Program-made: the position numbers and the translations under genes | The notes under the pieces: generated by a model | The model's database searches: none | What the model was told of the DNA's origin: nothing | Seen by the model: only the letters and a program-made list of their open reading frames with translations | Part shown: in pieces, positions 51,467-54,400 of the stretch | Layout: every line of letters begins with the position of its first letter | How positions within the stretch are numbered: the first letter of the stretch is position 1 | Assembly (NCBI GenBank): GCA_002291925.1 | Contig: DBAY01000026.1 | Coordinates: 1,088 to 65,087 of the forward strand | Source of the DNA: Alphaproteobacteria bacterium UBA998 | GTDB taxonomy: Bacteria > Pseudomonadota > Alphaproteobacteria > Rickettsiales > UBA998 | Reading direction: 5' to 3' | Length of the DNA stretch: 64,000 nucleotides

Positions 51467-54400
51467 CTAGAAGCGCTGCTCCTCGCGGCAGGTCGCTCCA
51501 TCAAAGTCAGCGGCGTAGCCTGCGTCAAGGTAATTATTGGCGCAGCTACCCCCCTCGCCTCCGGAAGCCGGAGCAAGGTTATTCAGCCCCTCACCCGTGT
51601 TGCCACCCGCGGCCGGGCTCAGGTTGGCAAGCGTATCAGCCGAAGCCGTCTGCGGCAGCTGGCCAGCCGGGGCGACGGAACGACCCGCTTCTACCGGCGC
51701 AGTGCCGCCCGTGTTGACCCAGGCGTAGCGGGCGCGCTTGCTTTCGGAGCCACCGGTGAGGCGGGCACGGCGCTGCGTCTGGCCTTGGCCCCCACCCGAT
51801 GCCGGGCTCAGGTTGGCGAGCGATGTGGCGTCGTTGCCGAAGCTGGCCAGACGGTTACCGCCGCCGAGCAGGGTAAGGTTCACATCGGTATTGCCGAAGT
51901 AATACTGATCACCCAGCGTTTCGCCGAAGTAAGAGTATAGGTTCTGCGCGAAGTCAGACTGGCGGTTCAGCTCGATTTCCTCCAGTGCCACCAGGTTAAT
52001 GGCCGGGGTGATCGTCGGGGTCAACGTACCACCGGGGGTGATCGGCGTACCCGGATCAATAGGGCCATCCGGACCGGAAGATTGGGGGTTGATGATGATG
52101 AGCCGTCCCGTGTTGCTACCAACGGTTTGGAAGTCGCTGTAACGGCCTTGGCGTGATGCGGTGTTCGCCTCAGCAAAGGGATTTGCACCGTTATAGACAA
52201 TGTTGGCATCGCTGTCCGCCGGGGTACCGAGCGCAACAATCTCCAGCGTGGCATTGGCCGTACCATTTACAGGGTCTCCGGCCTCGGAGATATCAGTGGT
52301 AATGGTGCGCGAGCGGGTGGTGCCCAGTGTTACCGTACCGTTGGGGGCGCCCATGAACAAATAGCTGAAAGCATTCGTGCCGCCCAGCGCCTGTACATCT
52401 ACGTTGCCAAGCGTCAGATTTTCGCCCGCAATGAAGTAGGCGGTGGCGGAGCTGGTGCCGGTGTCGGTCGGACGGCGGCCGCGGAACCCACCTTGCGCAA
52501 GGACATTCACATCGCCAGTGACCTTGATGTCCTTACCGGCGGTCACATCCAACGCCACCACAGAGGAGCGCGTGGCCCCGTTATTGTCCTCGCCCGTAAT
52601 GTTGATGGAACCACCGAGCAGGATGTTCTCCGCTGCCTTCAGCGAGGCGGCGATCAGATCGACCGAGCCGCGATTGACGTCATCGAAGGCAAACATCGAA
52701 ATGGCATCAGTGGTCAGATCGCCTGCGGAATCCGCGTTGATCGTGGTGGTGCCAAACGTGCCCGCCGTAGACAGGTCACCCACCGTGATGTCACCGCCAT
52801 TCGTGGTGGTGAGCGCAATACTGCCGGCCTGGAAAGGCGCAGTCGGCGTAGTAAGGAAGGTCAGGCTGCCCGTGCTGACATTATCGAGCTTGATGCCTCC
52901 TTGGCCGGCCAGAGCGATAACGCTGGCCGTGAAACTATCGATATCGCCACTTACGGTGACCGAGTTGCCGCCCTCGAGTTTCAGGAGGCGGTCCGAACGC
53001 ATGGGCACGGTGGTGCCGCCAGCGATGATAGCGTCCTCCGGTGTGCGCACGACAATCGGGCTGTTAATGGTGACATTATTGGTTGCCTTGAAATGAGCGA
53101 TAGTGTCGGTGATCGGCACCAGCATCTTATGGGCGTTGATGAAGATGTTACCAATGGCATTACCTGTGCCGATGACGGTCTTCTTTGCTAATGAGATAAC
53201 GTCGAAGTGCGCGGTGTACTGGTTCTTCGCATCGATAGTCACGTCTGCGAAGGCATCATTTCCGCCATCTGCATCAGCATGGACGCGGTGCAATTCAACA
53301 TTATTGCCGCTGATACGAATGCTCGCGCGGGATTCGCCCTCGTCACCGGCCTTGCGGACGCCGCCATCTGCATTGGCGTAGACTTGGCCTTTTACGAAGA
53401 CGTCGTTCACAGCTTCCAGATTAATGAACGCACGGGCGTTGCGTGTAGCGCCCTGATCATCCCAAGCGCGGGCCAAGACATCCTGCTTCACAGTGATATC
53501 GCCGCCCGCTTTGACAGAGATACGTGCTGTATCCGCGGTCCCCGGGTCCGGCTGATCATCGACGCGCACGAGCAAGCTGCGCGCTGTGAAGTCCTTGCCG
53601 GCATCCACCAGAATGCTGGTGGTTTTGTCGGTGCCGCGTGCGACCAGGTCCTGCACGGTAATATCGCCGCCACTGCTGGTAAGGCGGATGTCGCCCGCTT
53701 GAATGTCACCCGTCGGGGCGTCAAGCGCTGGGTAGGCACCATTGATACCAGTCCGAATACTGCCAATATTGATGCCGCCGCTGCCGGTCAGCAGGGTGAC
53801 GTCGCCGCTGGTCGTGCGAATCATGTCACCATTCGAATCAAAACGGATAGCGCTGTCGGCTGCAAGCGTACGAAGGGTGATATCACCCGCACCGCCTGTC
53901 AGTTCATTGTCTTTCAGGTTCTGCATGCGGATGAGATCGGTGGCCACGATGCTAACCGCCATGCCTGCTTGAGACTTGTTTTCGATCCATTGCTCAGAGA
54001 TATTGTTCAGCAGGCCGTTATTCCCGCCGTTATTGATGATGATGGTAGCCGGATCGATGAGGATGCTACCGCCCTTGCCACCAAAGCCCATGGCTTGCAT
54101 GCCACCCGCCAGCAGGATATCGGCGCCGCTAAGCTCGAGTTTGCCACCGTTATACCCAGAAGCGCTGATGTCCGCGTCATCGAGCAGCGCGGCCGTGCCT
54201 TTCTGTGCCAACACCTTGATGGTGCCAGCTTTTGTCTTGCCAACTTCGCTGTTAGCATCAGCAATCAGGTGCGCCCCGTGACCGCCGCCAGAGACCGGCT
54301 CATTGGAGAAACTTCCCTTCATCGTTGTCATCTTGTCGCTGCTGCCGCCGAGAATCGCATGGCGCTCGGCGTTGGCGAAAATGACGCCGCCTTGTTGGGT

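Follow-up and report, generated by a model that had tools for sequence, protein, structure and literature searches.

A predicted retention-and-release tail on a two-partner secretion adhesin encoded next to a LapG-type protease in an alphaproteobacterium

The locus and its components

The DNA analysed here, referred to as the window, is a 64,000-nt stretch of Alphaproteobacteria bacterium UBA998 (assembly GCA_002291925.1, contig DBAY01000026.1, positions 1,088-65,087 of the forward strand). It carries a two-partner secretion (TPS) pair, i.e. the adhesin-like exoprotein TpsA and its outer-membrane transporter TpsB, together with genes for a LapG-type protease and a putative receptor of cyclic di-GMP (c-di-GMP); the C-terminal tail of TpsA is the main subject of this report. 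Judged by homology, the locus is a complete Lap-like system in which all parts of a Lap-type circuit are found together. Assignments were based on Pfam, NCBIfam, Rfam and sequence comparison with solved structures, and the five genes concerned are the following.

58159..60264, + strand: inner-membrane protein with PAS and degenerate HD-GYP domains, 701 residues (Pfam PAS_4 and HD_5)
57422..58081, - strand: LapG-type cysteine protease (BTLCP, Peptidase_C93) with Sec signal peptide, 219 residues (PF06035, E 5e-18)
55580..57301, - strand: outer-membrane transporter TpsB with POTRA_2 and ShlB barrel, 573 residues (PF08479, PF03865)
51467..55399, - strand: adhesin-like exoprotein TpsA, 1310 residues (PF05860, E 3e-29)
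50677..51447, - strand: SapC-family protein, 256 residues (PF07277, E 8e-56)

The four genes of the - strand are co-oriented in the order BTLCP protease, tpsB, tpsA and sapC, and the PAS and HD-GYP receptor gene diverges from them. The BTLCP gene lies 120 nt upstream of tpsB, and sapC starts 19 nt past the tpsA stop codon. TpsB was kept beside TpsA in all related loci, and the locus adjoins rodA-pbp2-mreDC in the window and in its BTLCP-linked relatives. Neither genes of the size expected for type I secretion nor a giant adhesin were found in the window, where the linked secretion system is the TPS pair. Besides TpsA, the receptor and one frame antisense to tpsA, the 64 kb held no open reading frame (ORF) of at least 700 residues, hence no other candidate giant adhesin substrate. 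The antisense ORF (747 residues, 53207-55450, + strand) most likely reflects the 61% G+C content and not a gene.

TpsA displayed an extended signal peptide (residues 1-36), a TPS domain (residues 39-293, window 54521-55285) and a passenger devoid of any Pfam repeat domain. The long tpsA start was retained because orthologues conserve this N-terminus. Towards the C-terminus, the following features were distinguished.

51995-52099, - strand: Pro/Thr-rich linker before block A
51860..51994, - strand: block A, residues 1136-1180 (...EIELNRQSDFAQNLYSYFGETLGDQYYFGNTDVNLTLL), with which the tail module begins
51791..51820, - strand: motif 1, LANLSPASGG, residues 1194-1203, with PASG where orthologues have PAAG
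51719..51778, - strand: basic insert TQRRARLTGGSESKRARYAW, residues 1208-1227, between motifs 1 and 2
51602..51631, - strand: motif 2, LANLSPAAGG, residues 1257-1266, predicted scissile bond Ala1263-Ala1264
51557..51586, - strand: motif 3, LNNLAPASGG, residues 1272-1281, the least conserved copy
51488..51544, - strand: Cys box CANNYLDAGYAADFDGATC, residues 1286-1304, predicted disulfide loop ('cysteine hook')

An initial annotation, made from the sequence alone, had pointed to these motifs and cysteines, and translation of 51467-51838 reproduced its last 123 TpsA residues and all its motif and cysteine coordinates exactly. TpsA contains three cysteines in total, at positions 18, 1286 (51542-51544) and 1304 (51488-51490). 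As the same annotation stated, Cys18 belongs to the extended signal peptide and the mature protein retains the other two only, which span residues -25 to -7 from the C-terminus. The three tail motifs are, by their sequence, true internal repeats: about 2.5e-7 matches to the 10-residue pattern would be expected (an estimate from TpsA composition) and three were observed. Motifs 1 and 2 are separated by 53 residues with 7 Arg/Lys against 3 Asp/Glu, the basic residues being concentrated in the insert.

The PAAG of motif 2 (residues 1262-1265, window 51605-51616) is the sole [TAP]AA[GV] match in the whole of TpsA. Since about one such match is expected from composition, this number is at chance level and it is the position and conservation of the site that count. 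The bond Ala1263-Ala1264 lies 47 residues before the C-terminus and 22 before Cys1286. The initial annotation had named a di-alanine consensus for LapG proteases; in its published form this reads [T/A/P]AAG, with a targeting helix and an element containing DP ahead of it (PMC13090378). In LapA, the LapG-binding element was described as 'Helix 1 and DPxxxLxx' followed by TAAG (bioRxiv 10.1101/198937). For PAAG itself, LapG cleavage has been proven experimentally in FrhA of Vibrio cholerae, and replacement of this site by PRRG blocks it (PMC6890996).

No Pfam match at E<=10 and no NCBIfam match at E<=0.01 were recorded for the tail (last 175-177 residues). An AlphaFold model built on 21 tails was mostly disordered (mean pLDDT 56) and showed, at low confidence, short helical turns directly before each P-A-[AS]-G; the Cys box was its best-ordered portion and formed a small hairpin (pLDDT 72-73). 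The sorting signals PEP-CTERM, GlyGly-CTERM and LPXTG were rejected, as the tail is without a C-terminal hydrophobic helix. Likewise, an N-terminal BTLCP site was discarded: a [TA]AAG near residue 290 occurred in three orthologues only and not in the window TpsA.

The BTLCP was related in sequence to LapG of Legionella (structure 4fgo, E 4e-22; LapG chain of 4u65, E 1.6e-17). Its triad Cys137/His172/Asp187 is intact, and GDCED (Asp136-Cys137-Glu138), His172 and Asp187 were invariant in five BTLCP orthologues. Mutagenesis of DvhG has targeted the same D-C-E arrangement (PMC13090378). The protein is predicted to be a periplasmic enzyme with a Cys-His-Asp triad and flanking Asp and Glu residues of the Ca2+-binding type. 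That the neighbouring gene encodes a periplasmic BTLCP, as initially proposed, was thus borne out by PF06035, the signal peptide and the triad.

In the receptor, two hydrophobic transmembrane (TM) segments (residues 13-38 and 332-351) precede the PAS and degenerate HD-GYP domains. The roughly 290 residues between them, presumably periplasmic, matched no Pfam family at E<=10 and, by sequence, no solved structure. The best solved relatives of the whole protein were 9rc0 and 9rbz ('HD domain/sensory box protein', E 9e-28), taken here as Desulfovibrio vulgaris DvhD because crystal structures of exactly those DvhD fragments are reported in PMC13090378. Alignment with active HD-GYP domains revealed that the metal ligands are replaced (HD to LN, HHE to SQE, GYP to G-P); the first two changes were also seen against 9rbz/9rc0, and the substitutions were identical in five of five orthologues. 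DvhD is likewise a degenerate HD-GYP protein which binds c-di-GMP and controls the BTLCP DvhG (PMC13090378). The product of 58159..60264 is therefore predicted to be a DvhD-type c-di-GMP receptor gating the protease.

Conservation and distribution of the tail

A clear conservation of the tail was observed among orthologues. Its layout was kept in five full-length orthologues (53-61% identity), in the shorter proteins P0007 and P0123 and in the TpsA of locus L013, always in the same order: a LYSYFGETxGxxYYxGNTxVNLxLL block, two to three LxxL[SA]PAAGG copies, then sC[GA]NN[YF]LDxG[YF]...F....C. Within the set of seven orthologues used for measurements, mean identity was 0.535 over the whole of TpsA and reached 0.92 in motif 2, the highest of the three motifs. 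Sites of the form [TAP]AAG were concentrated in the last ~150 residues (17 of 20, the other three lying elsewhere), and the Cys-Cys spacing of 18 was found in all seven orthologues as well as in 28 of the 34 tabulated tails. The initial annotation had made its proposal depend on conservation of the tail among BTLCP-linked homologues, and the tail was kept in all of them. Chance low-complexity sequence as its source was excluded by this conservation, and on sequence grounds the tail is a conserved module.

The window copy is not typical in every respect. Its motifs 1 and 3 (PASG) depart from the PAAG of most orthologues, the equivalent of motif 3 being APAAG in three of them; the initial annotation had proposed PAAG or PASG as the cut site; of the three motifs, only the middle one is canonical here, and both PASG copies are departures specific to the window. 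The basic insert was conserved only in the window TpsA and in proteins P0002-P0006, and was absent from P0007, P0123 and the L013 TpsA.

Block A, the aromatic-rich stretch DFAQNLYSYFGETLGDQYYFGNTDVNLTLL before motif 1, is the most conserved stretch of TpsA and holds its most conserved 30-residue window (identity 0.86, 99.6th percentile). Its consensus [RK]GL[FY]S[FY]xGxT...NLSLL, also found as GLFSYAGxT...NLSLL, was common to distant tail-bearing TpsAs. Block A may be a segment lodged in the pore or contacting the POTRA domains.

The wider family was delineated by an exhaustive HMMER search with a tail profile (1.84 billion representative proteins, E<=1e-3), which matched 31 protein clusters. 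Among full-length matches the tail occupied the C-terminus of every TpsA (950-2269 residues), many of which carry NosD/beta-helix repeats; the remaining matches were mostly short C-terminal fragments or mis-called ORFs. The family consensus comprised one to four copies of [ST]Pxx[LF]xx[LI]xPAAGG (variants PSAG and PASG), then C-x17-C ending 1-10 residues before the C-terminus. Across distant lineages P-A-A-G-G was strictly conserved, and positions -2 and -5 were hydrophobic. The repeat [ST]PxxLxxLxPAAGG has a layout like that of the LapA element DPxxxLxx plus TAAG, in a register shifted by one residue; upstream of motif 2, the window TpsA reads S-A-D-T where the family form is S-P-x-x. About 110 of the 120 best TpsA matches were without the tail. 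A genome scan with the tail profile yielded three loci, two of them also found by other searches; a profile search with 21 diverse tails returned eight short fragments, P0132 and P0133 among them, and tail queries against plasmids gave no match.

Two further matches to the tail profile deserve mention. P0141 (1143 residues), which is not a TpsA, is Lys/Asn-rich with a signal peptide and displays four internal 'RRLSQYSPAAGG' units in addition to a C-terminal 'FASLSPAAGG', and P0146 (283 residues) contains five LSPAAG(G) units. Both are possible additional substrates of this enzyme, and SPAAGG could mark a wider protease regulon.

The initial annotation had also proposed to examine whether tail and BTLCP co-vary, and this held in one direction only. 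BTLCP, HD-GYP receptor, TpsB, tail-bearing TpsA and SapC occurred together in the window and in loci L001, L003, L005, L013 and L025, and the tail was present in every BTLCP-linked TpsA examined. As these loci all occupy the same chromosomal position, they represent one lineage in which the linkage was inherited vertically. The TpsB-TpsA-SapC operons of Thalassospira marina and Azospirillum argentinense are without BTLCP, and their TpsAs end without PAAG and without cysteines. Conversely, the tail does not imply an adjacent BTLCP, since it was also encountered at loci without one nearby (see below). A metagenome scan with the BTLCP added one 1.5-kb contig (L014) without usable flanking sequence. 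Plasmid-borne alphaproteobacterial BTLCPs were rejected as independent TPS-linked cases: those of Ensifer and Aminobacter sit with type I secretion systems and VCBS adhesins, and that of Martelella lies in an unrelated context, none having a TPS link.

SapC displayed neither a signal peptide nor a TM or other hydrophobic segment; no PDB relative and no NCBIfam model were found for it, and its single-sequence structure model reached pLDDT 37. Its gene sat directly behind tpsA in TPS operons of many Alphaproteobacteria and in no fewer than six distinct genomic contexts, two cultured Rhodospirillales among them; such operons occur in the cultured T. marina and A. argentinense. The additional sapC genes after tpsA were located as follows.

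L018, 11989-12756: sapC after tpsA
L019, 11983-12708: sapC after tpsA
L026, 13870-14643: sapC after tpsA
L027, 16822-17616: sapC after tpsA
L010, 3519-4280: sapC after tpsA
L024, 4881-5666: sapC after tpsA

SapC accompanied TpsAs with and without the PAAGG/Cys tail, and the tail occurred once without SapC (L028). Where the downstream side was visible, sapC followed tpsA in all tail-bearing loci except L028 and the divergent L008. In the literature searched, nothing tied SapC to two-partner secretion. These associations point to SapC as a TPS accessory factor, and it could be a new one for such adhesins.

As to the rest of the window, two tRNA genes were the only Rfam families reaching threshold, and no riboswitch was detected by Rfam.

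60968-61039, - strand: tRNA gene (Rfam)
63835-63906, + strand: tRNA gene (Rfam)

A proposed release mechanism and its rivals

The best explanation of these observations, and one we hold to be rather probable, is that TpsA bears a retention-and-release tail like that of Pseudomonas aeruginosa CdrA, cut by the LapG-type protease under the control of the DvhD-type receptor. By analogy with known systems, we infer the topology, the disulfide, the cleavage and the c-di-GMP control as follows. TpsA would be exported by Sec, then threaded N-terminus first through TpsB, both steps being established for TPS systems. In the last ~25 residues, Cys1286 and Cys1304 would form a disulfide loop in the periplasm, too bulky for TpsB, so that the adhesin would remain tethered; this step is modelled on CdrA and on HMW1 of Haemophilus influenzae. 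Upstream of the loop, a disordered stretch would offer one canonical and two variant sites for a LapG-type protease, each with a short hydrophobic L-x-x-L turn ahead of x-P-A-A-G-G and laid out as DPxxxLxx-TAAG in LapA. The divergently encoded, catalytically dead HD-GYP membrane protein would sense cytoplasmic c-di-GMP as DvhD does and, at high levels, keep the protease inactive. Upon a drop in c-di-GMP, the protease would cut Ala1263-Ala1264, and possibly the variant sites, so that TpsA would lose its hook and slide out of TpsB.

Several lines of evidence favour this mechanism. The parts of a Lap-type circuit sit together, and the PAAG of motif 2 fits [T/A/P]AAG and is identical to that of FrhA, a validated site. 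The geometry equals that of CdrA (47 against 49 residues, with the cysteines distal to the di-alanine). The high identity of motif 2 relative to the whole protein, the clustering of di-alanine sites in the tail and the invariant Cys spacing argue in the same direction. So does the distribution of the tail, present in all BTLCP-linked TpsAs and missing from those of Thalassospira and Azospirillum, which are without BTLCP. In the tail model, although it is of low confidence, the linker is disordered, helical turns precede each P-A-[AS]-G, and the Cys box is ordered.

Other observations weigh against it. The protease scored 84.7 bits with the NCBIfam LapG model, far under the equivalog cut-off of 320. 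The upstream element of the repeats is one residue off the LapA register, two of the three sites of the window TpsA are P-A-S-G and may not be cut, and known LapG substrates have one site where the tail family has one to four. The resemblance to the CdrA tail noted here is one of layout. At least four tail-bearing loci were without adjacent BTLCP, the flanking DNA examined ranging from 1.2 to 10 kb. Neither BTLCP nor HD-GYP was found within 10 kb on each side of L026 (PNTB/SH3 context) and L027 (SLT context), in the 1.2 kb upstream of tpsB in L023 (PNTB/SH3), in about 2.8 kb upstream of tpsB in L009 (PSAG motif variant), or in about 9.6 kb upstream and 10 kb downstream of L028. Locus L028 (7724-13117) occupies the same rodA-pbp2-mreDC slot as the window and encodes TpsB and a TpsA with one PAAGG and the Cys pair; it is without BTLCP, HD-GYP receptor and SapC, and a HemolysinCabind protein is encoded upstream. 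Such cases can be read in two ways: the protease gene lies at some other place, as in P. aeruginosa, or the repeats do not depend on a protease for their role.

These loci are compatible with repeats that have a protease-independent function, and they speak for regarding the tail as a constitutive anchor only, with the Cys box tethering TpsA in TpsB, the PAAGG repeats serving as flexible periplasmic spacer or binding some other partner such as POTRA domains or peptidoglycan, and the BTLCP acting on another substrate or having been recruited in this one lineage only. PAAGG and C-x17-C were kept in four other contexts without BTLCP or HD-GYP in the flanks examined, the tail persists in L028 without protease, receptor or SapC, and the number of motif copies varies from one to four, as a spacer would show. 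Yet a spacer hardly explains the strict P-A-A-G-G with its hydrophobic residues at -2 and -5. The motif coincides exactly with a validated LapG site, and 120 nt upstream of tpsB lies the co-oriented protease gene, with no other candidate substrate nearby. Moreover, cdrAB (PA4624/4625) and the LapD/LapG pair (PA1433/1434) of P. aeruginosa are treated separately in the literature consulted, and we take the two to be unlinked, so that a non-adjacent protease does not refute the CdrA model and is weak evidence for a purely structural anchor. We consider the constitutive anchor, which is the main rival, unlikely on balance.

It is very unlikely, in our opinion, that the tail serves as a C-terminal pro-piece or as an intramolecular aid to secretion, removed in the course of maturation and independently of c-di-GMP by some other protease, like the FhaB prodomain. 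Processing of TpsA C-termini by unrelated proteases is known, e.g. that of FHA by SphB1 (PMC5422565), and the conservation of block A above the rest of TpsA would suit a role in secretion or folding; but the tail, of ~175 residues, is short and for the most part disordered, a Cys pair stands at its end as in known anchors, and a dedicated protease and receptor pair is encoded next to the TPS genes. Little credit can be given, finally, to the tail being a recognition element for a cytoplasmic SapC, acting as chaperone or modifying enzyme before export, with PAAGG as its sites instead of those of a protease. The constancy of sapC behind tpsA in the visible tail-bearing loci other than L028 and L008 speaks for it, but SapC of Thalassospira and Azospirillum follows tail-less TpsAs and L028 has the tail without SapC.

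Release by the adjacent LapG-type protease thus being preferred, a broader proposal can be put forward tentatively, which we would regard as possible but doubtful: block A, the tandem [ST]PxxLxxLxPAAGG and C-x17-C would form an autonomous, widespread and hitherto un-annotated 'anchor-and-release' domain of TpsAs, whose tandem sites might allow graded or fail-safe release. Its partners may extend past an adjacent BTLCP, and it may be mainly alphaproteobacterial, as the few named sources are Alphaproteobacteria. Tandem PAAGG with C-x17-C at the C-terminus is a compact signature that could predict tethered, releasable TpsA adhesins.

Comparison with known adhesin release systems

Shedding of adhesins under c-di-GMP control acts as a central switch between the free-living state and the biofilm. 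To our knowledge, several type I-secreted cases are documented, and only that of P. aeruginosa for type Vb secretion. CdrA is a TpsA that a disulfide 'cysteine hook' at its C-terminus retains in CdrB (PMC5422565, PMC7616799, bioRxiv 10.1101/198937, bioRxiv 10.64898/2026.07.13.738186). At low c-di-GMP, LapG cuts its TAAG at 2105/2106 of 2154 residues and the adhesin is released (PMC5422565, PMC4694147, PMC7616799, PMC7484184, bioRxiv 10.1101/198937, bioRxiv 10.64898/2026.07.13.738186), the cut site lying 49 residues from the C-terminus and upstream of the hook (bioRxiv 10.64898/2026.07.13.738186).

The window system resembles CdrA in its TpsA substrate, TpsB pore and C-terminal Cys pair (the hook being predicted here), in a [T/A/P]AAG placed before the cysteines at nearly the same distance from the end, and in the combination of a periplasmic LapG-type BTLCP with an inner-membrane c-di-GMP receptor, here predicted from the genes. 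The hook and LapG release of CdrA reportedly trace to Cooley 2016 and Rybtke 2015. The two systems differ in the receptor (PAS with degenerate HD-GYP of DvhD type here, the GGDEF-EAL protein LapD there), in the location of the protease and receptor genes, here beside the TPS genes, in the number of site-like motifs (three in tandem against one site), in the presence of sapC after tpsA and in size (1310 against 2154 residues), the passenger here being without Pfam repeat domain.

D. vulgaris DvhD shares with the window receptor the succession of TM segment, periplasmic domain, TM segment, PAS and HD-GYP without metal ligands (PMC13090378), and is its best match among solved structures; the periplasmic domain of DvhD is a dCache, and the ~290-residue stretch here gave no Pfam match. 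In both cases the receptor is paired with a BTLCP, and DvhG cuts at [T/A/P]AAG (PMC13090378). Yet DvhG is larger (catalytic Cys317), has a disordered N-terminal region and is mostly membrane-associated (PMC13090378), in contrast to the 219-residue protease with cleavable signal peptide found here, as in LapG. Dvh substrates are furthermore giant adhesins that leave by type I secretion and carry their retention domain at the N-terminus, whereas the substrate predicted here is of type Vb with a C-terminal hook.

In HMW1 of H. influenzae, the C-terminus with its two disulfide-bonded cysteines remains periplasmic and tethers this TpsA in its TpsB, HMW1B. The window TpsA also has a Cys pair near its C-terminus, which spans residues -25 to -7, against the last ~20 residues in HMW1. 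HMW1 is distinguished by the lack of a known di-alanine site and of a regulated protease, and its third gene encodes the glycosyltransferase HMW1C instead of SapC. The HMW1 anchor was cited as precedent for CdrA (bioRxiv 10.1101/198937). As for LapA of Pseudomonas fluorescens and FrhA/CraA of V. cholerae, they follow the cleavage logic proposed here, and their recognition element (a hydrophobic helix or turn, a Pro-containing turn, then [T/A/P]AAG) resembles the tail repeats in layout, but they are type I secretion substrates with a folded N-terminal retention domain and a single site.

The retention-and-release mechanism itself is thus already demonstrated for CdrA. New here are the linkage of protease and receptor in an operon with TPS genes, the tandem sites in an un-annotated tail family, the presence of SapC and, as predicted from sequence, the pairing of a DvhD-type receptor with a type Vb substrate; the combination of a DvhD-like receptor, a small LapG-like protease and such a substrate was not described in the Dvh or Lap literature consulted. 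This suggests that the same release logic was apparently assembled from other parts, namely a protease the size of LapG, a receptor of DvhD type and a substrate secreted by TPS, found in one place in uncultured Alphaproteobacteria.

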